DNA from: Candidatus Doudnabacteria bacterium
GTDB taxonomy: Bacteria; Patescibacteriota; Doudnabacteria; UBA920
Length of the DNA stretch: 64,000 nt
Assembly (NCBI GenBank): GCA_963768175.1
Contig: CAVYGQ010000001.1
Location: 840,717 to 904,716, forward strand
Reading direction: 5' to 3'
A program made the translations under genes and the position numbers. Shown here piece after piece: positions 21,905-56,853 of this stretch. How positions within the stretch are numbered: position 1 is the stretch's first letter; every line of letters starts with the position of its first letter. The notes beneath the pieces are model-generated. The model was not told where the DNA came from. It saw only the letters and a program-made list of their open reading frames with translations, and searched no databases.

Positions 21905-22459
21905 TTAGAGTATCTGATGATTTTTTGACAAACTTAAACCATGCGATAACAACCAGGCCTCAACCTCTTTAGCTATTTTTTCGCTCATCCAATAACCCCT
22001 GGAAAGAGCAGCAATATCGGTTTTGGTAAGATCTTCAATAGTTTGAATGTTTGATCGTTTTGCCGTGGTATAAAAAGAGTTCGTGGCTCTAGTTCTTGAA
22101 AGCTTAATTATTGTCACTGGTTGTTTTAACAATTCTTGCTTAATATGTATCTCATTTTCTGCTATACGTTCTGCTTCCTTGTCTAATAAAGGTTTAAGTT
22201 TCCTAATCTCCGGATTAGTTTTTTCGTTTCGAGAAAGATCGCGAATAGGTTTTTCAATTTCAGCCATGGTTTCAGCTGTAATTGGATCTTCCACTTGGTT
22301 TATTCTTCTCTCTATTTCTTCGGAGCGGCGTTGAGTATTTTCAGGATTCACGAAATACCCTTTCTTATTATCATTCCCGCGAAAGCGGAAATTAGATTCC
22401 CGATCAGCTTTGGAATGACATAATGATAATAAATTATGGAATAAACCTAAAATTCTCAA
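21905..22459 (-). CDS. Hypothetical protein whose C-terminus resembles an RNA polymerase alpha-CTD-like HhH domain
   Basis: The C-terminal segment NIQTIEDLTKTDIAALSRGYWMSEKIAKEVEAWLLSHGLSL resembles an alpha-CTD. Confidence 0.4.
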   Translation of the reverse strand: MRILGLFHNLLSLCHSKADRESNFRFRGNDNKKGYFVNPENTQRRSEEIERRINQVEDPITAETMAEIEKPIRDLSRNEKTNPEIRKLKPLLDKEAERIAENEIHIKQELLKQPVTIIKLSRTRATNSFYTTAKRSNIQTIEDLTKTDIAALSRGYWMSEKIAKEVEAWLLSHGLSLSKNHQIL

Positions 22460-23924
22460 ACTGCCAAACGTCCGCGGCCGGTTTGCTGGCCGGGTTTTCT
22501 TTGAAGTAGATTTTACGATTCTTTAGGGGCGTCCAGTCAGACGGCGTGGAAATAAAGTCGCCGAGATAAGGTTTTGCAATATCCAGCACAAAATCGTGCG
22601 GCAAGTCGTCAGGCAGGCAAATACCTTTTTTCGGATTTTCAAACATCCATAGTACGGCGGCAATTACGCCTAGCGCGACCTGTAAAGTGGTGGCATTTTG
22701 GCCAGGTGCCAGCCTCCGGGCTTCCTGTATGCTTAAATCGCTCCCTGTCCACCAAGAATTATACCGATGCCCCATCAGTAGCGCGCCTAAAATGTCCGCC
22801 CCGGAAGTAATCTCATCTTCCAAAATTCTTATCTTGGACTGCATTTCGTAATTCCTGCCGCGAAGTTCGCATAAAGAAGATAGTGTTTCGTGGCACGGCA
22901 TATACGCGTAATGCACTGTCGGGCGGTAAACTGCCCTATCTCCATCCCAAACTGTTAACCTGTCGGATAACCCAAATGCTTCGCCGTGGCGAATGACCAT
23001 GCCCACAATTTCTTCGTTGGGAATCCATGACCTTACCCAGGTATTAATTCCCATTTGGGAGAGCATAATCTGATTTTTTGGCCCGTAAGGCGGAATATTA
23101 GCCAAGTCCGGTAGCCTTTGTTCGTGTGTGCCCCAACCCATCTCGGCCGGCGCGGTTCCTTCTTCCCGCAAGCCTTCCACGCTCCAGGTTCCTACAAATT
23201 CATCAACTTCTTTTGGGCGATTGGTAATTTGCGTGTCGCGCTCGCTGCAGTGGATTACTTTGATTCCCAATTTTTGTCCGAGCAAATTGAATTTGAGGTT
23301 TTTAATATAATTTTCCAGTTCTTCCCTGTCTTTGCCAGCCACTTTTTTATCTGCGATTGTTTTATTGCCGATATCAATCAATCCTTGTTTGACAAAATGG
23401 GAGATCAAACCGGGGTTTGCGCCATGGTCCACGACTGCCGTAGTGGCGTCTTTCCAGTCTTTGGACATGTCGTGCAGTTTCATTTGGCGCCAGTAAAGCG
23501 ATTTTTCAAATGGGCTGTCAGTAAATAATCCCTTAATGGAATCCCAGATTTCAACCGAAGTATTTACATACAAAACATTATGGTCGTGGCACCAGCCGAT
23601 AATATCATTAGCACCAATATTCCATGCCAAATCTATAATCAGGCCGCCCTTGTCTGTGTATTTGGCCAACTCCGGGCCTAGGTTTTCCGGCGTAATCCTG
23701 TTGCGTACAAATTTGATGCCCTTGTCCGTGAATTTTTTTAAAGCCGCTGCTTTGTCTTCAAAATCCATTACCGTGACGTTTTTTGGGTCAACCTCAATTT
23801 TTTCCAGCAGAATCGGCAGGGTGCACTGCGACACCGCGCCATAACCGATAATCAAAATTTTGCGGTCAAACTTTTTTTTTCCGCCGGAGGCGGATCCGCC
23901 TTTAGCGGACATACGTTTTTCCAT
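22434..23924 (-). CDS. hss: Homospermidine synthase / saccharopine-dehydrogenase-family enzyme
   Basis: NAD-binding N-terminus (ILIIGYGAVSQCTLPILLEK) and 496 aa. An in-frame AKGGSASGG cassette sits near the N-terminus. Confidence 0.55.
   Translation of the reverse strand: MEKRMSAKGGSASGGKKKFDRKILIIGYGAVSQCTLPILLEKIEVDPKNVTVMDFEDKAAALKKFTDKGIKFVRNRITPENLGPELAKYTDKGGLIIDLAWNIGANDIIGWCHDHNVLYVNTSVEIWDSIKGLFTDSPFEKSLYWRQMKLHDMSKDWKDATTAVVDHGANPGLISHFVKQGLIDIGNKTIADKKVAGKDREELENYIKNLKFNLLGQKLGIKVIHCSERDTQITNRPKEVDEFVGTWSVEGLREEGTAPAEMGWGTHEQRLPDLANIPPYGPKNQIMLSQMGINTWVRSWIPNEEIVGMVIRHGEAFGLSDRLTVWDGDRAVYRPTVHYAYMPCHETLSSLCELRGRNYEMQSKIRILEDEITSGADILGALLMGHRYNSWWTGSDLSIQEARRLAPGQNATTLQVALGVIAAVLWMFENPKKGICLPDDLPHDFVLDIAKPYLGDFISTPSDWTPLKNRKIYFKENPASKPAADVWQFENFRFIP
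23880..23903. repeat. 24-nt palindromic cassette AAAGGCGGATCCGCCTCCGGCGGA (in minus orientation) in frame in hss
   Basis: Identical 24-mers occur at 44773-44796 (murA) and 53990-54013 (murF). Each encodes KGGSASGG. Confidence 0.85.
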
Positions 23925-40174: not shown

Positions 40175-40432
40175 ATTAAATACAAATAAATTGATGCCTG
40201 AGCTTGTCGAAGGCTCAATTTATTTGTCCCTTCGACTTTGCTCAGGGGACAAATAAATTTAAATTTGACGTTTTTTACGTCAACAGTATATCAAATCTAA
40301 TAAAAATAAGCAAATAAAGGCAAAATATATAATAAATTATGCCACAATTATTGACGTTATGTCAATTTTGATGTATTGTTATCGGTCAAAACAAAAACAC
40401 CTGACGAGGTTAACAACGCAAAGGAGGTAGTT

Positions 40433-42857: not shown

Positions 42858-43000
42858 ATAAATTTGAAGCATTAAATCCGAAATTCGAAACAAATTCTAA
42901 TATCTAAATTGTAAATTCAAAATCCTGGATGTGCCCGTTTAAATATTAAGTATTTGAATTTGTGAATTGTTTCGGATTTCGATATTAGGATTTCAAATTT
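42858..43000. repeat. Large imperfect AT-rich palindrome (AAATCCGAAATTCGAAACAAATTC ... GAATTGTTTCGGATTTCGA)
   Basis: Seen directly. It is intergenic and overlaps the 3' end of the DUF4446 gene. Confidence 0.5.
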
Positions 43001-43455
43001 GCCTTTTCTACTGCCTGTTGCTCTTCATCGGTCAGTTTAATCTCACATTTCCCCTGGTCTATTTTTTTGGTGTAAATCCTGTTTTGCTCGCGTCCATACA
43101 TGGAGGTAATAATTATTCCGGTATTGTGTTCATCCAATAAAGCCAAAGAAAAACTAAAATTCCCGCCGCCATCGTTAAACGGATTAAAACGTACAAGCCC
43201 CACTTTCTGAACGGCAAAAGTAACCTTAGTTTTTAGTTCATTTAATTCCTGCATCAAAGCCGTTTCCTGCTCCCGGCTGTTCTGTAATTCTTGCTTTAAG
43301 GAGTAAATCACACTTTCTAAACTTAGAGCTTTTCCACCCGCGAAAAAAGCCTTTTTTAGCTTATTAATAGAAATTATTTGCCAGGTGCAGTATCCGGCTA
43401 AAATCAGGGCCAAGCCGGCCAAAATTAAGGTGATTGTAGGTAGCTGTGTTATCAT
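42985..43455 (-). CDS. DUF4446 family protein
   Basis: N-terminal TM helix and GLVRFNPFNDGGGNFSFSLALLDEHNTGIIITSMYGRE. Confidence 0.7.
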   Translation of the reverse strand: MITQLPTITLILAGLALILAGYCTWQIISINKLKKAFFAGGKALSLESVIYSLKQELQNSREQETALMQELNELKTKVTFAVQKVGLVRFNPFNDGGGNFSFSLALLDEHNTGIIITSMYGREQNRIYTKKIDQGKCEIKLTDEEQQAVEKANLKS

Positions 43456-43989
43456 ATCTAAGCTATTGTAGCACTAGTTATGGCTTGCGTTCAAATGATA
43501 AATTGTATCATTATCCTTTATCTTTTATCCTTGACAACCTTCGCTTGGTAAAGGATAATGGATAAAAGATTAAAGATAAATTTATTATGTCCAAAAAGCA
43601 CAAAAGAAGCGATTACCAAATACCCCAGCAAGCCGGTATTTCCCATGCCGCGGAATACCGCATTATTAAGTTTGATTTGGTAAAAGTGGTAATTTTAAAC
43701 CTTGTTTATTTAGCGGTTATTTTGTCGTTGTATTTTGGCAACCAGCATACGCATTTTTTGGATAACTGGTTTGCGAAACTTCTCCATTTCTAGTTTATCT
43801 TTGAACAACGGGCATCATTGGTCTTAGAAATATTTCAATCCAATGGTGCCCGTTGTTACCTTTTGTTATAGACGCCCCATAATGGGCGGGTTTTGTCATA
43901 TATGATATAAAGTGGATAATTTTGGTTGACCAAAGGGCAAAAATTTGCTAAAATTGTAATACATATATCACATACGATAGTTTCCCTTT

Positions 43990-44075
43990 GGCGTCATCCT
44001 GAGCGTAGCGAAGGATCTCATTAAAGAAAGAGATTCTTCACCCTTCGGATGCTACTTCAGGTTCAGAATGACGCC
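43990..44075. repeat. Palindromic element GGCGTCATCCTGAGC...TTCAGAATGACGCC (copy B, intergenic, upstream of murA)
   Basis: Terminal inverted repeats plus an internal palindrome, GAAGGATCTC..GAGATTCTTC. Confidence 0.8.
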
Positions 44076-44094
44076 TTAGGAAAGAAAATATTAT

Positions 44095-45648
44095 ATGCAA
44101 AACCTTATAAAGGATCAGCAGAAAATCGGCCAGTTTATAGCCGAAGTCCGTGAGCTTAAAGGCTTTACCCAAAGCCAGTTTGCCAAAAGCTTAAAAACCA
44201 GCCAGTCAGCCGTAGCCAGGATGGAAAGCGGCCAGCAAAACTTAACTACAGAGATGCTGGCTAAGATTAGCGCAGTTTTGAACCATGAAATTATTACGTT
44301 GGCCGACAAGTCGGTAAATTTTAAAATAGAAGGCGGGCGGAAACTTTCGGGAAGGGTCGCGGTTAATACTTCCAAGAATGCCGCGGTGGCGCTGTTGTGC
44401 GCTTCTTTGCTTAATGAAGGTAAAACTATTTTTAAGAATGTGCCTAAAATAGAGGAAGTCTACCGGGTAATTGAAGTTTTGGTCAGTCTTGGCGTCTCGG
44501 TAAAATGGCAGGGCGCGGATGTGGAAATTTTGCCGGGCAAAAAAATTACCATAAATAAAATAGACAAAGAAGCCGCGGTTAAAACCAGAAGCGTTCTTAT
44601 GCTGCTTGGGCCTTTGGCTCATATTCTTCCCGCTTTTAACCTGCCTTTGGCCGGCGGCTGCAAACTGGGCGAACGGACCGTGAGGCCGCATTTGTTTGCT
44701 TTGGAAAAGCTTGGAGTTAAAATTCAGACCCATCATGACCATTACGCCGTAAGCTCGGCTAAAGCTCCCGCCAAAGGCGGATCCGCCTCCGGCGGAAAAA
44801 CCGCGGAGGTAGTGCTTTACGAAATGGGTGACACAGTGACGGAAAACACGCTTATGGCCGCGGCAAAAATAAACGGCGTGACCACCATCAAGCTGGCCTC
44901 TTCCAATTACATGGTGCAGGATTTATGTCATTTTTTGCAAAGTTTGGGCGTAAAAATTGAAGGCGTGGGTACCTCCACCTTAAAAGTGCATGGCAAACCG
45001 CACATTAACCAGCGTGTGGTCTTTTATTTAAGCGAAGACCCCATAGAAGCCATGCTGTTTTTGTCTTTGGCTGTCACCACAAATTCTTCCATAACCGTTG
45101 AGCGCTGCCCCATAGACTTTTTGGAGCTGGAACTGTTGAAATTGGAAAAGATGGGGTTTAAGTACCGGATTATTAAGCGTTATAAAAGCCATAACGGTAT
45201 TACCAATTTGGCAGATATTAAGACTTTCCCGTCTAAATTAATCGCGCTGGAAGAAAAAATCCACCCGTTGACGTCCTCGGCCGGAATTAATATAGATAAC
45301 CTGCCGTTTTTTGTGCCCATTGCCACCCAGGCCAAAGGCACCACGCTGATTCACGACTGGGTTTACGAAAATCGCGCTATTTACTATTTGGAATTAAATA
45401 AGCTGCGGGCCAATATAATTTTGGCCGACGCCCACCGCGTTTACATAGACGGCCCGACCGAACTTAAAGCAGGCGAAGTCATTTGTCCCCCTGCCCTGCG
45501 CCCGGCCGCGATAATTCTAATTGCGATGTTAGCCGCCAAAGGCACCTCTATTCTCCGCAACGTTTATTCCATAAACCGCGGCTATGAGAATTTGGTGCAG
45601 CGATTACAGAAGCTCGGAGCCAAGATCGAAATGATACATGGCATGTAA
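44095..45648 (+). CDS. murA: UDP-N-acetylglucosamine 1-carboxyvinyltransferase fused to an N-terminal XRE-type HTH domain
   Basis: Residues 1-65 form an HTH_3 domain (IGQFIAEVRELKGFTQSQFAKSLKTSQSAVARMESGQQNL). The MurA core follows (KLSGRVAVNTSKNAA...). An in-frame AKGGSASGG cassette is also present. Confidence 0.85.
   Translation: MQNLIKDQQKIGQFIAEVRELKGFTQSQFAKSLKTSQSAVARMESGQQNLTTEMLAKISAVLNHEIITLADKSVNFKIEGGRKLSGRVAVNTSKNAAVALLCASLLNEGKTIFKNVPKIEEVYRVIEVLVSLGVSVKWQGADVEILPGKKITINKIDKEAAVKTRSVLMLLGPLAHILPAFNLPLAGGCKLGERTVRPHLFALEKLGVKIQTHHDHYAVSSAKAPAKGGSASGGKTAEVVLYEMGDTVTENTLMAAAKINGVTTIKLASSNYMVQDLCHFLQSLGVKIEGVGTSTLKVHGKPHINQRVVFYLSEDPIEAMLFLSLAVTTNSSITVERCPIDFLELELLKLEKMGFKYRIIKRYKSHNGITNLADIKTFPSKLIALEEKIHPLTSSAGINIDNLPFFVPIATQAKGTTLIHDWVYENRAIYYLELNKLRANIILADAHRVYIDGPTELKAGEVICPPALRPAAIILIAMLAAKGTSILRNVYSINRGYENLVQRLQKLGAKIEMIHGM
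44773..44796. repeat. 24-nt palindromic cassette AAAGGCGGATCCGCCTCCGGCGGA in frame in murA
   Basis: Identical to the copies in hss and murF. Confidence 0.85.
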
Positions 45649-45713: not shown

Positions 45714-48209
45714 ATGGCGGAAACAAACAACAATTTGGGTTTATCATCAGCCGAAGCCGCTAGCAGATTAAGGCAGTACGGCTATAACGAAATTGCGGAA
45801 AGCAAAAGGCTATCCGGGCTTTTGGCTTTTTTGTTAAGGTTCCGCAATCCGCTGGTGCTGATTTTGGTCTTTGCGGCTACGATATCAGCTGTAACCGGGG
45901 ATCCCGTCAGTGCGCTGATTATCATCAGTATTGTACTGCTGTCCGTTATCTTAGATTTTTTTAATACCTACAAATCCCAAAAAGCCGCGGAAGAGCTGAT
46001 AGAAAAAGTGGAAATTACAGCCGAGGTATTGAGAGGCGGCATAGTGACTCCCCTGCCGCTGCGCTTGATTGTGCCCGGAGACGTGGTGGAACTTGAGGCC
46101 GGAGACGTAATTCCCGCAGACGGCAAAATTTTAAGCGCCAAAGATTTATTTTTGAACGAATCTTCGCTAACCGGCGAATCTTTTCCCGCGGAAAAGCAGG
46201 AAGGCTTGCCTATTTTTTTGGGAACCAACGTGGTTACCGGCACTGGCCGGATGCTGGTGGAAGTTACGGGTAAAAAAACCAAGTTCAGCAAAATCGCGGA
46301 AAGTCTGGAAGCGCCGGAAAGGCCTACGGATTTTGACCGCAGCATAAAAGATTTTAGCTACTTAATTATGAAGATAACTTTTGTCTTGGTTATCTTTATT
46401 TTTTTGGTTAACGCCATACTCAAAGGCAGCACTTATATTTTGGAGTTGTTTTTGTTTGCCGCGGCCTTGGCCGTGGGCTTGACGCCGGAGCTTTTGCCCA
46501 TGATTATTACGCTTAATTTATCCAAGGGCTCTTTGGCCATGTCCAAGCACGGCGTAATTGTAAAAAAACTATCGGCCATCCAAAACTTTGGCGCTATGGA
46601 TGTATTGTGCACCGATAAAACCGGCACGTTGACGGAAGACAGGATTGAACTGGTCAAGTACGTGGACGCCGAGGGCAAGCCGGATGAAAACATTTTTAAG
46701 TACGCTTACCTTTCCAGCAGTTTCCGCAGCGGCTTTAAGAATCCGCTGGATGTGGCTGTAAAAAATTTCAAGATGTTTGATATTGGCGGCAAATCCGCCT
46801 TCGCTGAAGCTTCGGCGGATGACTCGCTATCAAATATATTAATGGGAGTCAAAAAAATAGACGAAATCCCCTTTGATTACCGGCGCAAGCGCGATTCCAT
46901 TATCGTGAAAACTTCTCAAGGCTATGAGCTTATTTCCAAAGGCGCGCCTGAAGAAATGTTTGAGACCTGCAGTTTTTATAGCCAGATGGGTAAAAAACTC
47001 ACCCCTACTATAGCCAAAAAATTGGAAAAAGAATATCAGGCTTTAAGTGCCGACGGCTTTAGGGTTTTGGCTGTGGCCTGCAAGACGCTTCCGGAAAAAA
47101 CGGCATACGAAAAAGAAGACGAAAGGGATTTGGTTATATTGGGCTTTATTGCTTTTTTGGATCCGCCCAAAAAGAGCGTGACCGAAACCCTGCGGACTTT
47201 GGAAAATTATGGCATCGCCATAAAAGTTATTACCGGCGATAACGAAATTATTACCAAAAAAATCGCTCAGGAAATTAATTTGCCCGTTTTGGGCAGTTTG
47301 ACCGGGGCAGAGATAGAAAAATTGACCGATCGGCAGCTAGCAATAGATGCGGAGAAAACTACAGTTTTTGCGCGCGTTACGCCGGAACAAAAAAAGCGCA
47401 TTATTTTGGCTTTGCAAAAAAATAAACACGTAGTCGGGTTTATGGGCGATGGTATAAATGACGCGCCGTCGCTTAAGACCGCGGACGTGGGCATTTCGGT
47501 TAACAACGCGGTGGACGTGGCCAAGGAATCGGCCGATTTAATTTTATTGCACAAGAGTTTAAAGGAGCTGGCTTTAGGCGTTATCCAGGGCCGCAAAACT
47601 TTTGCCAATACTTTAAAGTATTTAATGATGGGTTTGAGCTCAAATTTCGGCAATATGTTTTCCATGGCCGGAGCATCCATGTTTTTTCCGTTTTTGCCCA
47701 TGCTGCCGGCCCAGATTTTGCTAAATAATCTGCTGTATGACGGCTCGCAGTTTGTCATTCCGCTGGACAATGTGGATGAGCAGGACATTGCCAGGCCACG
47801 GCAAATGAAGATCCATTTTTTGCGCAGATTTATGGTGGTTTTTGGCATTTTAAGTTCGGTGTTTGATTTTGTGACGTTTTTAGTGTTAACTTTTGTCTTC
47901 CATTATACCAACCACTACTTCCAGACCGGCTGGTTTATTACCTCTTTTGCCACGCAAATTTTAGTGGTATTTGTTATCCGCACCAAGCAGGTGCCGTTTT
48001 TCAAAAGCAAGCCGGCTAAGTCCTTAGTTATTTCCGTGTTTAGTTTTTTGGCTTTAGCCCTGCTTTTGGCCTTAGGCCCGATAAAAAATATCTTCGGCTT
48101 TGCCCCGCTTTCGCTGGCCATGGTTTTAAGCGCTTTCCTTATTACCCTGCTCTATTTAATCTGTATTGAGTTCGCCAAAAGCAAATTTTACCAATATGTT
48201 TCGGAATAA
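45714..48209 (+). CDS. Cation-transporting P-type ATPase (MgtA-like)
   Basis: DKTGTLT, TGDN and GDGINDAPSL motifs, 831 aa. Confidence 0.8.
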   Translation: MAETNNNLGLSSAEAASRLRQYGYNEIAESKRLSGLLAFLLRFRNPLVLILVFAATISAVTGDPVSALIIISIVLLSVILDFFNTYKSQKAAEELIEKVEITAEVLRGGIVTPLPLRLIVPGDVVELEAGDVIPADGKILSAKDLFLNESSLTGESFPAEKQEGLPIFLGTNVVTGTGRMLVEVTGKKTKFSKIAESLEAPERPTDFDRSIKDFSYLIMKITFVLVIFIFLVNAILKGSTYILELFLFAAALAVGLTPELLPMIITLNLSKGSLAMSKHGVIVKKLSAIQNFGAMDVLCTDKTGTLTEDRIELVKYVDAEGKPDENIFKYAYLSSSFRSGFKNPLDVAVKNFKMFDIGGKSAFAEASADDSLSNILMGVKKIDEIPFDYRRKRDSIIVKTSQGYELISKGAPEEMFETCSFYSQMGKKLTPTIAKKLEKEYQALSADGFRVLAVACKTLPEKTAYEKEDERDLVILGFIAFLDPPKKSVTETLRTLENYGIAIKVITGDNEIITKKIAQEINLPVLGSLTGAEIEKLTDRQLAIDAEKTTVFARVTPEQKKRIILALQKNKHVVGFMGDGINDAPSLKTADVGISVNNAVDVAKESADLILLHKSLKELALGVIQGRKTFANTLKYLMMGLSSNFGNMFSMAGASMFFPFLPMLPAQILLNNLLYDGSQFVIPLDNVDEQDIARPRQMKIHFLRRFMVVFGILSSVFDFVTFLVLTFVFHYTNHYFQTGWFITSFATQILVVFVIRTKQVPFFKSKPAKSLVISVFSFLALALLLALGPIKNIFGFAPLSLAMVLSAFLITLLYLICIEFAKSKFYQYVSE

Positions 48210-52819: not shown

Positions 52820-54403
52820 ATGGACTTGTTTGTTCCAAAATTTATCCAATACCAATTATACCTGCTCCAGCTGGAAAATTATGAGCTGGGAAGGTATTGG
52901 AAATTGCTTATAAAAAAGGGAGTTTTCCCTAAAAAAAGCCAACCTTTGCGCAAAGAGCTGGTCTGGACCGCTAAAGCTCGGGCGTTAATGCTTATGGCTG
53001 TGGCCCTGCATGGTTTGGTGGTCGTTTTGGTTGGGCTTATGGTTTTAACTTTAAAGCCGGGCATAGATAACTTTTTTACCACAATAATTTTGGCGGTATT
53101 AATTTTGTTGCCGTTTTATTTTGTTTTTTTCAGTCTGGCTTTGTTAATCCTTAAGCCTTTGGACACTCTGGTAAAACAAAGCCTTGTGGCTAAAGCCAAA
53201 ACCAAGCTGGCTGGATTGCCTGATGTCAAGATAATCGGCGTTGCCGGCAGTTACGGCAAAACTACAATGAAGGAAGTGTTGAGGGCAGTGCTAAGTGCTA
53301 AGTTCAAAGTGCTAAGTACGCCGGAGAGCATAAACACGCCGGTGGGGATTGCCAGATGGATTATAAATAAAATAACGGACGAAACCCAAATTCTGATTGT
53401 AGAAATGGGGGAGCATTATGAGAAAGACGTTAAAGAAATTTGCGATATAGCAAAACCCGACATCGCGGTGGTTACCGGCATTAACGAATCCCACTTGGAG
53501 CGGATGAAAAAAATGGATACGGTTATTGCCACAATTTTTGAAATCGTGAGTAACGCCCAGCCCGGCGCGGCTATTGTGCTAAACGGCGATGATCGCAGGG
53601 TTATGGAGAATTATAAAAAATTTGTCTGGCCAGACCATCGGCTGGAATTTTTTACAAAAAATCCCGGCAGTGAAAAGTGTAAAGTGAAAAGTGCAAAGTT
53701 TAACACAGACAAGCTGTGTTGGAATTTAGAGATTGATGATCTTGGCTCGGTAGAACTGGATTTACTTGGGGAATACGCGTTGGGCGACGTTGACGCGGCC
53801 GTGAAAATTGCCAAAAGTTTGGGTATGAGCAATGAGCAAATTATCGCGGGGATCAAAAATATCAAGCCCGTGGAGCACAGGCTCCAGCCGATAAAGTCTG
53901 CCACGAATGTTTTGGTAATAGACGACAGTTACAACGGCAATTCCGACGGAGTAGTGGAAGCCATAAAAGTTTTGTCGCGCTTTTCCGCCAAAGGCGGATC
54001 CGCCTCCGGCGGAGAAGGCCGCCGGAAGATTTATATCACTCCCGGGCTGGTGGAAATAGGCAAAAGTTCCGCCGATATTCATCGCAGTATTGGCAAACAG
54101 CTGGCGGACGTTGCGGATGTGGTTATTTTGATAAAAAATAGCGCGACGGGGTTTATTGAAGAGGGAATCCTCTTAGGGCGTCATTCTGACCCTGAGCGGA
54201 GCGAAGGGGAAGAATCTCAAACTAAGGATAAAGAGATCCTTCGTCCCTCGGATGCACTCGGGGCTCAGGATGACGCCGCTGGTAAGAGACCAAGAATTAT
54301 CTGGTTTAATTCCGCCTTGGAAGCGTACGCGGGGCTAAAAGACATTTTAAAACCCGGGGATGTAATTTTGTTTCAGAACGATTGGGGAGACCAGTATTTG
54401 TAA
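52820..54403 (+). CDS. murF: UDP-N-acetylmuramoyl-tripeptide--D-alanyl-D-alanine ligase with an N-terminal TM extension and two in-frame repeat insertions
   Basis: Mur ligase ATP-binding motif GVAGSYGKTTMKE. Two in-frame inserts are present: the KGGSASGG cassette at 53990 and a palindromic element of about 100 nt at 54177-54277. Confidence 0.85.
   Translation: MDLFVPKFIQYQLYLLQLENYELGRYWKLLIKKGVFPKKSQPLRKELVWTAKARALMLMAVALHGLVVVLVGLMVLTLKPGIDNFFTTIILAVLILLPFYFVFFSLALLILKPLDTLVKQSLVAKAKTKLAGLPDVKIIGVAGSYGKTTMKEVLRAVLSAKFKVLSTPESINTPVGIARWIINKITDETQILIVEMGEHYEKDVKEICDIAKPDIAVVTGINESHLERMKKMDTVIATIFEIVSNAQPGAAIVLNGDDRRVMENYKKFVWPDHRLEFFTKNPGSEKCKVKSAKFNTDKLCWNLEIDDLGSVELDLLGEYALGDVDAAVKIAKSLGMSNEQIIAGIKNIKPVEHRLQPIKSATNVLVIDDSYNGNSDGVVEAIKVLSRFSAKGGSASGGEGRRKIYITPGLVEIGKSSADIHRSIGKQLADVADVVILIKNSATGFIEEGILLGRHSDPERSEGEESQTKDKEILRPSDALGAQDDAAGKRPRIIWFNSALEAYAGLKDILKPGDVILFQNDWGDQYL
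53990..54013. repeat. 24-nt palindromic cassette AAAGGCGGATCCGCCTCCGGCGGA in frame in murF
   Basis: Identical to the copies in hss and murA. Confidence 0.85.
54177..54277. repeat. Palindromic element GGCGTCATTCTGA...CTCAGGATGACGCC (copy C), inserted in frame near the murF C-terminus
   Basis: It encodes GRHSDPERSEGEESQTKDKEILRPSDALGAQDDAA and keeps the reading frame. Confidence 0.85.
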
Positions 54404-54440
54404 TGACAAAAATTAAAAAAATGACATAATTGACAAAAAT
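54402..54440. repeat. AT-rich TGACAAAAAT repeat (copy 4, short) between murF and alr
   Basis: taatgacaaaaattaaaaaaatgacataattgacaaaaatt. Confidence 0.7.
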
Positions 54441-54442
54441 TC

Positions 54443-55588
54443 ATGGGGACAATCGGAAAAATTTTTAATAAGATAGTATCACCAAAAATTAACTATCAAC
54501 CGCTTATAGAAGTGAGGATTTTTAAAGATGCCTTGCTGCATAATTTACACGTTTTCCAAGAAAAATATCCGAGCCTTGAGTTTGCCCCAGTGATAAAAAG
54601 CAACGCTTACGGACACGGTATGGTACAGGTGGCAAAAATTTTTGACAGCAAACCCAAAGCTTTTTTTATGGTGGACTCATTTTATGAGGCTTTGGTGTTA
54701 AGGCGCGCCGGAATTAAATCTAAAATTTTAATGCTGGGTTTTAACCGGATTGAGCAATTGATTAACCCCAAATTAAAAAATTGTTCCTCGGCGATTATTG
54801 ATTTCTCCACTTTGCAGGAAGTGGTGGCAAAATTAAAAAAGCCGGCGATCTTTCATCTCAAGATTGATACGGGTATGCACCGGCAGGGACTGTGGGGGGA
54901 AGAAGTAAATAAGGCAATTGCGTTAATCAAGTCTAACCCAAACTTTAATTTGGAGGGCTTATGCAGCCATTTGGCGGATGCCGACGGGGCTGGGCAGGAT
55001 TTTACCAAACAGCAGATTAGACTGTGGAATCAAGTCGTGGAAAAATTCAAACAAAACTTTCCCTCCATTAAATATTTCCATTTAGCCAATACCGCCGGGA
55101 CTTTTTATACCAACGAAATTACGGCCAACGTGGCGCGCATCGGCATCGGGCTGTATGGGTTAAATAATTCACAGTTTGAAAAGTTGGACTTAAAACCGGC
55201 TTTGGAAATGGCCTCTATTGTCACTTCCGTAAAAACTATTCCGGCTGGGGAGAAAATCGGTTACAATATAACTTATGAGGCGCCGAAAGAAACAAAAATC
55301 GCCACCGTACCGGCGGGATTCAACGAAGGCGTGGACCGCAGGCTTTCAAATAAAGGATTTTACCAAATTAAGGGGCAAAACTGTCCTTTGCGGGGCAAGG
55401 TGAGCATGAACATAAGCAGCGTGGAAGTAACCAGTGTCCCTGGAGTTAAAGTGGGGGATGAGGTGGTAATTATAAGCCGAAATCCGAGCGATAAAAATTC
55501 GGTGGAAAATATTGCCAAAATGTGCGACACGGTACATTACGAAATTCTGGTTCATATACCTTCTATATTAAGAAGAATAATAGTGTAG
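54443..55588 (+). CDS. alr: Alanine racemase
   Basis: PLP-lysine motif VIKSNAYGHG, 381 aa. Confidence 0.88.
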   Translation: MGTIGKIFNKIVSPKINYQPLIEVRIFKDALLHNLHVFQEKYPSLEFAPVIKSNAYGHGMVQVAKIFDSKPKAFFMVDSFYEALVLRRAGIKSKILMLGFNRIEQLINPKLKNCSSAIIDFSTLQEVVAKLKKPAIFHLKIDTGMHRQGLWGEEVNKAIALIKSNPNFNLEGLCSHLADADGAGQDFTKQQIRLWNQVVEKFKQNFPSIKYFHLANTAGTFYTNEITANVARIGIGLYGLNNSQFEKLDLKPALEMASIVTSVKTIPAGEKIGYNITYEAPKETKIATVPAGFNEGVDRRLSNKGFYQIKGQNCPLRGKVSMNISSVEVTSVPGVKVGDEVVIISRNPSDKNSVENIAKMCDTVHYEILVHIPSILRRIIV

Positions 55589-55637
55589 CGCGCCGATTTA
55601 TCGGCATCCTAAGATAGCCCATAAATGGGCACGCTAC
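55585..55637. repeat. Compound palindromic intergenic repeat (copy 2 of 2)
   Basis: GTAGCGCGCCGATTTATCGGCA...AGCCCATAAATGGGCACGCTAC. Confidence 0.8.
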
Positions 55638-55653
55638 AGATGGAAAAAATTTT

Positions 55654-56853
55654 ATGAAAAAAAACATTGGCGTATTTTTTGGCTCGGGCTCTACAGAACA
55701 CGATATTTCGATAATTACGGCCCAGCTGATTATTGCCGGGCTAAAAGGTTTGGAATACCCGGTAACCCCCGTCTATATTACCAAGCAGGGCAAATGGATG
55801 CTCGGGGAAGAGCTGGGGAACTTGAAATTTTTTATTGACCCGAGTAAAAAAGTTGAAGACGAAAAAAAATATTACGAATATTATTTGGATATGCAAGAGT
55901 TGGTGGGGAAGATGGTGTTTAAGCGTAAGGGATTTTTGGGCAAATCTATTGTCATCGATGTGGCTTTTCCGGCCTTACACGGCGCTTTCGGCGAAGACGG
56001 AACCATTCAGGGGGTGTTCGAGATGCTCGGTGTGCCTTACGTGGGCTGCGGCGTGCCGGCCTCGGCCATTGCCATGGACAAGGCTCTGACCAAGATAATT
56101 ATGAAGGACGCGGGCGTGCCGACCACTAAATTTGCTTTTTTCTATAAACAGGATTGGGAAAATAGCAAGCCGCAAATTATAAATCAAATTAATCAGCTCA
56201 AGTGGCCGGTGTTTGTAAAACCGGTACATTTGGGCTCTTCCATCGGCATCGGCAAAGTAAAGGCGGGGGATATTAAAGATTTGGAAAATAAGATTGAAGT
56301 TGCGCTACATTATGACGAAAAAGTTTTGGTGGAAGAAAGCGTGGAAAATTTAATGGATGTGACATGCTGTATAATCGGCAACAACCAGCTGCGCGCCTCG
56401 TTGCTTCAGGAGTCGGTGTTTAGCAGCGAACTGTTTGATTTTGAAAACAAGTATATTTCCGGCGGCGGCAGCCAGACCGGCAAAGCCGTCAATAATTTGA
56501 TTATTCCCGCCAGACTGGACGAGGCCACCACCAAAGCAATTCAGGATTGCGCCATAAAAGTTTATAAAGCTTTGGGCTGTTTTGGCATCGCCAGGGTGGA
56601 TTTTTTATACAACAAGCAAACCAAAGAATTTTTTGCCAATGAAGTTAATCCTTTACCGGGTACGCTTTATCACCATTTGTGGAAAGCCAGCGGTTTGGAA
56701 TTAGGCCAACTTTTGCAGCAGCTGATAAAATTTGCGGAAGAAAAATACGAACAAAAACGCGAAATTACTTTTACCTTTGAATCTAGCGTGTTAAAACAGT
56801 TAAGTAGCGTTAAGTTAAAATCAAAAAAGTTAGATAGTGGTGTTTCATCATAA
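55654..56853 (+). CDS. ddl: D-alanine--D-alanine ligase (canonical copy, with a C-terminal extension)
   Basis: N-terminal Dala_Dala_lig_N (IGVFFGSGSTEHDISIITA) plus an ATP-grasp C-terminal domain. Confidence 0.88.
   Translation: MKKNIGVFFGSGSTEHDISIITAQLIIAGLKGLEYPVTPVYITKQGKWMLGEELGNLKFFIDPSKKVEDEKKYYEYYLDMQELVGKMVFKRKGFLGKSIVIDVAFPALHGAFGEDGTIQGVFEMLGVPYVGCGVPASAIAMDKALTKIIMKDAGVPTTKFAFFYKQDWENSKPQIINQINQLKWPVFVKPVHLGSSIGIGKVKAGDIKDLENKIEVALHYDEKVLVEESVENLMDVTCCIIGNNQLRASLLQESVFSSELFDFENKYISGGGSQTGKAVNNLIIPARLDEATTKAIQDCAIKVYKALGCFGIARVDFLYNKQTKEFFANEVNPLPGTLYHHLWKASGLELGQLLQQLIKFAEEKYEQKREITFTFESSVLKQLSSVKLKSKKLDSGVSS

Follow-up and report, generated by a model that had tools for sequence, protein, structure and literature searches.

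Why would the enzyme that commits a cell to peptidoglycan synthesis carry a DNA-binding domain? MurA (UDP-N-acetylglucosamine enolpyruvyl transferase) catalyzes this committed step and is the target of fosfomycin, and a gene of a Candidatus Doudnabacteria bacterium (contig CAVYGQ010000001.1 of assembly GCA_963768175.1) encodes a MurA-like protein that begins with a helix-turn-helix (HTH) domain of the XRE type. We analyzed computationally the 64,000 nucleotide stretch of the contig in which this gene lies (positions 840,717 to 904,716 of the forward strand, here called the window), together with relatives of the gene in other genomes. The fusion, which we refer to as HTH-MurA, is real and conserved, and a palindromic site recurs at the promoters of the genes that encode it. 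The reading we prefer, at a probability of roughly 0.7, is that HTH-MurA is a bifunctional MurA whose fused HTH would let it repress its own promoter and also, in certain genomes, murB or further mur genes.

The gene occupies a single uninterrupted open reading frame (ORF; 44095-45648, forward strand) of 517 amino acids plus a stop. HTH_3 (PF01381) matches residues 15-63 with an E-value of 7e-12 (45.6 bits against a gathering cut-off of 23), EPSP_synthase (PF00275) spans residues 79-504 (E-value 1e-47), and the MurA subfamily model NF006873 of NCBIfam matches residues 75-514 with 313 bits, above its cut-off of 297. MurA chains in the PDB align only from residue 75 (best 5ujs, E-value 1.7e-53), leaving the first 74 residues uncovered, and the onset of the MurA core is placed at S73/V74 (SVNFKIEGG), which matches residue 3 of solved MurA chains. 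An initial annotation made from the letters alone had the fusion right in its coordinates and sequence, and its N-terminal HTH_3 part stands, but the core begins about 9 residues earlier than it had proposed. The linker between the two parts is merely about 8-10 residues and is nearly constant in length across the family alignment. An AlphaFold2 (AF2) monomer model has a mean predicted local distance difference test score (pLDDT) of 88.7 and a predicted template modeling score of 0.82, with four confident helices in the HTH (residues 2-21, 26-33, 37-44 and 52-62, pLDDT about 88-92) that include the helix 2-turn-helix 3 element; linker residues 67-71 fall below a pLDDT of 50 and are predicted to be flexible.

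An artefact of assembly or gene calling, in which two adjacent genes are read as one, has some prior plausibility for a single contig of a metagenome-assembled genome (MAG), which is all that favors it; the initial annotation itself had raised gene calling as an alternative. Relatives were sought in a collection with one genome per species, in which 595 stretches encode them, and the best 80 were inspected (L001-L080). Both Pfam domains are present in all of the 120 best protein clusters (69-90% identity, about 505 amino acids, from many independent assemblies), and in 77 of the 80 best genome loci the match begins at residue 1-11 and runs on in one open frame, so that the ortholog comparison suggested in that annotation comes out in favor of a fusion. 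The fused loci include Doudnabacteria, Paceibacterota, Nomurabacteria and Saccharibacteria/Saccharimonadales of the candidate phyla radiation (CPR), as well as about 50 Actinomycetota with 51-55% identity (Streptomyces, with complete chromosomes, Nonomuraea, Actinopolymorpha, Allokutzneria, Marinitenerispora, Dermatophilaceae and Acidimicrobiia). Among named relatives, the nearest are MAGs of Candidatus Doudnabacteria and of the 'Patescibacteria group', and at NCBI members of the family are named either 'UDP-N-acetylglucosamine 1-carboxyvinyltransferase' or 'helix-turn-helix domain-containing protein'. The HTH is missing from the CPR relatives L018, L024 and L025 (63-68% identity) and from P0121, and no separate HTH gene lies upstream of any of these four; nor did any relative carry the two parts as separate genes. 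The frame is continuous, the same architecture with its constant linker recurs in hundreds of independent assemblies, finished Streptomyces chromosomes among them, and nothing near residues 65-80 looks like an internal start with a ribosome-binding site, as had been remarked at the outset. With the fusion present in hundreds of independent genomes a gene-calling artefact is excluded, and we regard the chance that these are really two genes as negligible.

What the HTH might bind is suggested by the DNA in front of the fused genes, where a recurring palindrome was noticed when their upstream regions were read. Queried as a 14-mer with up to 2 mismatches, TATCAYATRTGATA has 33 matches between -200 and 0 of fused-gene starts, against 3 elsewhere in 560 kb of loci. 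With a cut-off of 10 bits, a symmetric position weight matrix (PWM) made from the 14-mer sites (consensus aTATATCATATATGATATAa; palindrome consensus TATATCAyATrTGATATA) detects a site in the 250 nucleotides before 100 out of 105 fused genes, and in none of 358 equally sized control windows taken from the same loci. The non-fused L018, L024 and L025 have no PWM site anywhere in their loci. Positioning is precise: 61 sites are centered exactly -19 or -20 nucleotides from the ATG, in CPR bacteria and Actinomycetota alike. In Streptomyces, at about 72% GC, the site is essentially invariant (ATCTCATATCTGAGATA) and is followed by a TAnnnT hexamer and then 7 nucleotides to the ATG. In the CPR loci a TTGACA-like hexamer directly precedes the palindrome, and a TATAAT- or TATACT-like hexamer, 9 nucleotides from the ATG, either coincides with the right arm or abuts it. 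The promoter of most family members is thus apparently leaderless, with the operator filling the -35/-10 spacer and overlapping the -10 element.

On the protein side, 47 diverse members share a nearly invariant motif that spans helix 3, T-S-Q-S-A-[VI]-x-R-[MI]-E-x-G-x-Q-N. We take as established that the operator exists, where it lies and that it occurs together with the HTH; that the fused HTH binds the operator, and that the effect of binding is repression, we infer from these patterns. The proposal of autoregulation with which the analysis began accordingly gains strong comparative support from a palindrome on the own promoter of 100 of the 105 fused genes, found in none of the non-fused relatives and present twice in the window.

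The two window sites, O1 (TTTTGTCATATATGATATAA) and O2 (ATATATCACATACGATAGTT), are the sole 14-mer matches in the 64 kb, where 0.28 would be expected by chance, and both lie in the region of roughly 300 bp before the gene (Table 1). Further PWM matches at 40286 (10.2 bits) and 50745 (11.0 bits) were judged to be noise. Two candidate promoters are recognized, of which P2 is the better and P1 has weaker support. The left arm of O1 is the -35-like hexamer of P1; P2 sits between the two operators, and O2, which begins 9 nucleotides past the P2 -10 hexamer, is predicted to lie at or just downstream of the P2 transcription start. The TTGAC(C/T) element of P2 is also found in L002 and L003, and the TAAAAT -10 hexamer in L003. 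An O1 homologue occurs at the same place in L001-L005 and L007, and O2 homologues in L002-L004 and L007; the two-site layout, with centers 56-72 bp apart, is seen in the nearest relatives with two detected sites (L002-L005 and L007). An intrinsic terminator followed by the operator is an order repeated in L001-L005, and in the window the terminator bounds the regulatory region.

Between O2 and the ATG the window has an insertion that contains GTCATCCTGAGCGTAGCGAAGGATC and forms a near-perfect leader hairpin, the base of which pairs with, and sequesters, the Shine-Dalgarno-like AGGAAAG at 44078-44084. The hairpin is missing in L002-L004, where O2 stands 8-12 nucleotides from the ATG. An Rfam scan of 43400-44400 gave chance matches only at the E-value threshold, so the hairpin belongs to no known riboswitch class or RNA family, and GTCATCCTGAGCGTAGCGAAGGATC is present as a single copy in the window and in none of the 208 loci searched, and is thus not shown to be a repeat family. 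The hairpin could be an insertion resembling a miniature inverted-repeat transposable element, or it could add translational control.

The terminator belongs to a small gene directly upstream, a 68 amino acid ORF (43587-43793, forward strand) with a hydrophobic C-terminal half and no Pfam match, and it abuts O1. In L003, L004, L006 and L007 the end of a coding sequence with a similar C-terminus likewise precedes the fused gene, showing that the synteny is conserved.

From this arrangement a mechanism can be proposed in which HTH-MurA would occupy the operator, presumably as a dimer given the palindromic site. Since the operator fills the -35/-10 spacer and covers the -10 element, the bound protein would be expected to shut RNA polymerase out of the promoter; in the window, O1 and O2 would act from either side of TTGACC-17-TAAAAT, which they bracket. 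The outcome would be negative autoregulation of the MurA supply. Several points weigh against this reading. The AF2 monomer has no confident docking of the HTH on MurA and no fixed interface, and thus gives no structural sign of either allosteric coupling or a dimer interface. In the window O2 is the weaker PWM match (17 bits), and the 100 nucleotide hairpin between it and the ATG makes the geometry depart from that of the leaderless majority. As for the enzyme, identity to characterized MurA proteins is merely about 30-35%, and the score against the MurA equivalog TIGR01072 of NCBIfam is 304 bits, under its cut-off of 392.7.

The palindrome might instead belong to the promoter or be bound by a different regulator, with the HTH binding other DNA or a protein partner, or being vestigial. 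Its AT-richness and its overlap with the -10 region mean that conservation could partly reflect promoter constraints; however, the non-fused relatives, which need promoters too, lack the site, and its strict conservation in GC-rich Streptomyces is not that of a generic promoter feature. The window encodes no other HTH of this type, and in the catalytically degenerate members described below the HTH is more constrained than the enzyme domain.

Public metagenome contigs scanned for the exact 18-mer TATATCAYATRTGATATA provide an independent test of the assignment. Of 120 loci returned, 24 have an HTH-murA gene starting 14-173 nucleotides downstream of the 18-mer. A further class of 11 loci (including L114, L115, L141, L160, L175, L177, L178, L188, L197 and L200) has a Gp49-type toxin gene (PF05973) that starts at the palindrome and is followed by an HTH_3 antitoxin of roughly 100 amino acids. 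Roughly 80 of the 120, or about two-thirds, have no recurring family gene or other recurring neighbor, which counts in favor of a site unconnected with the HTH; these are probably chance matches to an AT-rich sequence. Type II antitoxins of the HigA/Gp49 kind are known to repress their own operons via palindromic operators. The antitoxin HTHs found here are 38-49% identical to the MurA-fused HTH (44% to that of the window, E-value 6e-14) and have a near-identical recognition helix, T-x-QS-x-[IV]-AR-[MI]-E-x-G-x-QN. That the same HTH subtype stands with the same palindrome in two unrelated gene contexts supports the pairing of operator and HTH, and we consider a site that serves something else to be quite unlikely.

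HigA-like XRE antitoxins with Gp49/HigB toxins (PF05973 plus PF01381) are therefore the known system closest in HTH and identical in the 18-bp palindrome at the promoter, although they differ in architecture, the antitoxins being about 100 amino acids with an N-terminal extension and HTH-MurA having its HTH at the N-terminus followed by a 444-residue enzyme. No Gp49-like toxin gene is present in the window, and a 517-residue protein with an enzyme domain does not qualify as a type II antitoxin. The similarity suggests a toxin-antitoxin module as the source of the HTH together with its site.

Whether the enzyme half still does chemistry was addressed with an alignment of 306 sequences. In E. 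coli numbering, the window protein has equivalents of all eight catalytic and substrate residues K22, N23, R91, C115, R120, D305, R371 and R397 (at positions 94, 95, 165, 189, 194, 401, 427 and 469, respectively), and the full KNRCRDRR set is found in 200 of about 210 fused sequences aligned, including every genome-locus sequence. The AF2 model superposes on MurA structures with template modeling scores of 0.88-0.94 (Foldseek). HTH-MurA thus shares with canonical MurA (E. coli and E. cloacae, PDB 1uae and 3swd; C. jejuni, 5ujs) the two-domain inside-out alpha/beta barrel fold and the catalytic Lys, Cys, Arg and Asp, and it differs in forming a separate clade of Patescibacteria and Actinomycetota and in its N-terminal HTH, which is found in no solved MurA chain. 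The enzyme half of the window protein looks functional.

A contrasting view is that the protein is mainly a transcription factor with a MurA-fold ligand sensor and that a separate plain murA elsewhere does the chemistry. The sub-threshold TIGR01072 score would fit this, as would the presence in Streptomyces of a housekeeping murA in addition to the fused copy (PMC12161575). The intact catalytic residues in the window protein and 200 close relatives argue otherwise, and neither the 64 kb of the window nor the DNA within about 3 kb of the gene at L001-L080 contains another gene of the EPSP-synthase type. The non-fused members of the clade (L018, L024, L025 and P0121) resemble ordinary MurA enzymes, and murB is a frequent immediate neighbor; it adjoins in 23 of 111 fused loci, and in at least 7 it is divergent across the operator with 31-76 nucleotides between the two starts.

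Also in favor of a sensor are seven distant fused clusters at 50% identity (P0127, P0130, P0142, P0145, P0146, P0167 and P0239) in which the catalytic Cys loop is lost and, in most of them, K22 or R120 is also gone, yet the HTH is kept, and in six of the seven so is the operator before the gene or its operon; the exception is the P0142 locus, L087. Compared with the window protein their HTHs are 44-67% identical and their MurA-like domains 30-42%. At L082, L084/L085 and L086, which come from uncultured lineages, the degenerate gene is divergent, across the operator, from a plain murA that has the Cys and is accompanied by murB or a Mur ligase gene, and further mur or ddl genes stand behind the degenerate gene. 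The back-to-back MurA-type genes are at 2558-3916 of L082, 2624-3940 of L084 and 95-1411 of L086, and the plain murA products of these loci are only 25-30% identical to that of the window. The degenerate members look like enzymes that have turned into dedicated regulators, and because they keep the HTH and the operator, DNA binding can be argued to be the function that defines the family. For the window protein we consider a mainly regulatory role improbable, and a MurA that is both enzyme and repressor remains the better account.

The enzyme domain of the window protein also contains a small insertion. A GC-rich double-hairpin mini-element, (T)CCGCCAAAGGCGGATCCGCCTCCGGCGG, has three copies in the window (44770-44795 and 53987-54012 on the forward strand, 23881-23906 on the reverse), all inside coding sequences, in the orientation of the host gene and in the same frame, so that each encodes AKGGSASGG. 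The hosts are HTH-murA, a Mur ligase ORF (52820-54403) and an ORF at 22434-23924. Among about 300 aligned sequences the insertion in murA is otherwise found only in P0047, the 75%-identical gene of L005 (3676-3695 of that locus). It forms a loop in the AF2 model, with a pLDDT below 50 and predicted disorder at residues 225-230, and its in-frame insertion is reminiscent of the Rickettsia palindromic elements.

The Actinomycetota provide a link to a gene that already has a name. Streptomyces orthologues are 52% identical to the window protein over the full length, including the HTH, and in several loci the fused gene is divergent from an aconitase gene. SCO5998 (murA2) and SCO5999 are described as being arranged divergently, with murA2 next to aconitase, and a DmdR1 site is predicted for murA2 in the same account (PMC12161575). 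The published sequence of the SigB-dependent SCO5998p promoter of S. coelicolor (GCCATC...GGGTAT; Table 2 of PMC8346170) matches at 38 of 46 bases about 300 nucleotides upstream of the fused gene (L043 2652-2697, L044 2650-2695). From synteny and this promoter match, the Streptomyces fused copy is probably murA2 (SCO5998, sven5810 or vnz_28735), the second murA of the genus and a direct BldM-WhiI sporulation target (PMC4125116, PMC11005364). The conservation of SCO5998p at this distance suggests that the gene has a distal stress promoter besides what appears to be a proximal, operator-covered leaderless one. The passages of these papers that name murA2 or SCO5998 make no mention of an HTH domain or of the ATCTCATATCTGAGATA palindrome. 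One observation fits poorly: the published forward primer for cloning murA2 of S. venezuelae encodes MPTPTAS..., and none of the Streptomyces loci searched contains this N-terminus; the S. venezuelae start may be annotated further upstream, or murA2 of this species may not be the equivalent gene. Apart from aconitase, the neighbors of the Actinomycetota copies are variable (a sigma factor, GntR, an MFS transporter, GNAT and others), and operon partners therefore give no functional clue in this phylum.

A rough neighbor-joining tree, computed with no support values, bears on how the family arose. It places the non-fused forms inside the fused clade, which tentatively suggests that they lost the HTH secondarily. 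The Actinomycetota clade (L029, L031-L080) falls inside the CPR clade beside a Saccharibacteria-type sequence. Saccharibacteria live as epibionts of Actinomycetota, which makes horizontal transfer between symbiont and host lineages plausible.

MurA undergoes a large ligand-driven change between open and closed states and binds UDP-N-acetylmuramic acid (UDP-MurNAc) tightly (PDB 3swd and related entries). For that reason it is attractive, if speculative, to suppose that the ligand state of the MurA domain (UDP-N-acetylglucosamine, phosphoenolpyruvate or the feedback ligand UDP-MurNAc) would modulate DNA binding, by analogy with BirA or PutA. These two proteins (winged HTH plus biotin ligase, and ribbon-helix-helix plus proline dehydrogenase, respectively), together with NadR and the archaeal RbkR (PMC5397151), combine a DNA-binding domain and a pathway enzyme in one polypeptide, and they have operators on pathway or own-gene promoters, as with the HTH-MurA palindrome, which is found on its own promoter and in some lineages stands between the gene and a divergent murB or a plain murA-murB or mur-ligase operon. 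Francisella BirA has paralogues with and without the DNA-binding domain (PMC4462617), as in the HTH-MurA family. HTH-MurA differs from these 'trigger enzymes' in the enzyme, in the pathway (peptidoglycan precursors) and in the type of HTH (XRE/HTH_3), and whereas ligand-dependent DNA binding is established for BirA and PutA, for HTH-MurA it is conjecture.

A more ambitious scenario joins these threads: HTH-MurA proteins would be a hitherto unrecognized family of metabolite-sensing transcription factors for the synthesis of cell-wall precursors, gated by the open or closed state of MurA, their HTH and operator would derive from a Gp49/HigA module, transfer between Saccharibacteria-like Patescibacteria and their Actinomycetota hosts would have led to a sporulation-specific MurA2 in Streptomyces, and decay in the CPR would have produced a pseudoenzyme regulator of a separate murA-murB operon. 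Taken as a whole we regard this scenario as possible and somewhat doubtful.

Table 1. Features of the HTH-murA locus, in window coordinates.
Feature	Position	Strand	Basis
HTH-MurA coding sequence	44095..45648	+	single ORF, Pfam, NCBIfam, AF2
XRE-type HTH_3 domain, residues ~10-66	44122..44292	+	Pfam, AF2 helices, conserved motif
Predicted recognition helix QSAVARME, residues 37-44	44203-44226	+	AF2 helix
Interdomain linker, residues ~63-73	44281..44313	+	low AF2 pLDDT, constant length
MurA (UDP-N-acetylglucosamine enolpyruvyl transferase) domain, residues 74-517	44314..45645	+	PDB alignment, Foldseek, catalytic residues
Catalytic Cys189 codon	44659-44661	+	alignment to E. coli C115
GC-rich palindromic mini-insertion encoding AKGGSASGG, residues 226-234	44770..44795	+	in-frame copy
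Operator O1, TTTTGTCATATATGATATAA	43891..43910, core 43894-43907	.	24.0-bit PWM match
Operator O2, ATATATCACATACGATAGTT	43963..43982, core 43966-43979	.	17.0-bit PWM match
Promoter candidate P2, TTGACC-17 nt-TAAAAT, upstream TG	43926..43954	+	consensus scan 10/12
Promoter candidate P1, TTGTCA-16 nt-GATAAT	43893..43920	+	consensus scan 10/12
Intrinsic terminator of upstream small gene	43873..43898	+	stem CGCCC/GGGCG then T run
Leader hairpin, roughly 100 nt	43981..44085	+	RNA fold -49.5 kcal/mol, z = -6.7

Beyond these features, a gene for a DUF4446 protein lies upstream on the opposite strand (42985-43455), and a P-type cation ATPase gene (45714-48209) follows HTH-murA on the same strand after a 66 nucleotide gap. 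A group of peptidoglycan genes, with Mur ligase and ddl, is found 8-11 kb downstream in the window (about 52820-56853, forward strand).

Public databases already show the domain architecture, and the Streptomyces gene is a named one; in the literature on MurA with HTH/XRE, CPR, Streptomyces or fusions we found no account of what the fusion means, of the operator, of the leaderless autorepressor geometry or of the pseudoenzyme derivatives. How MurA levels are set is an active question. In Firmicutes ReoM/ClpCP degradation, and in mycobacteria activation by CwlM (PMC4946905), also regulate the committed peptidoglycan step, in both cases through partner proteins that act on MurA stability or activity, whereas control by HTH-MurA would be transcriptional and built into the enzyme. 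If true, such self-contained transcriptional control would add a third answer to this question. In the catalytically dead descendants one sees how an enzyme may become a dedicated regulator.

Patescibacteria encode few transcription factors and are mostly uncultured, and HTH-MurA would, if the model is true, be their main predicted cell-wall regulator. Streptomyces shares the architecture and the operator, probably in its murA2, and so offers a tractable organism in which to test the model directly; the operator consensus can be used now for regulon annotation in thousands of CPR genomes.

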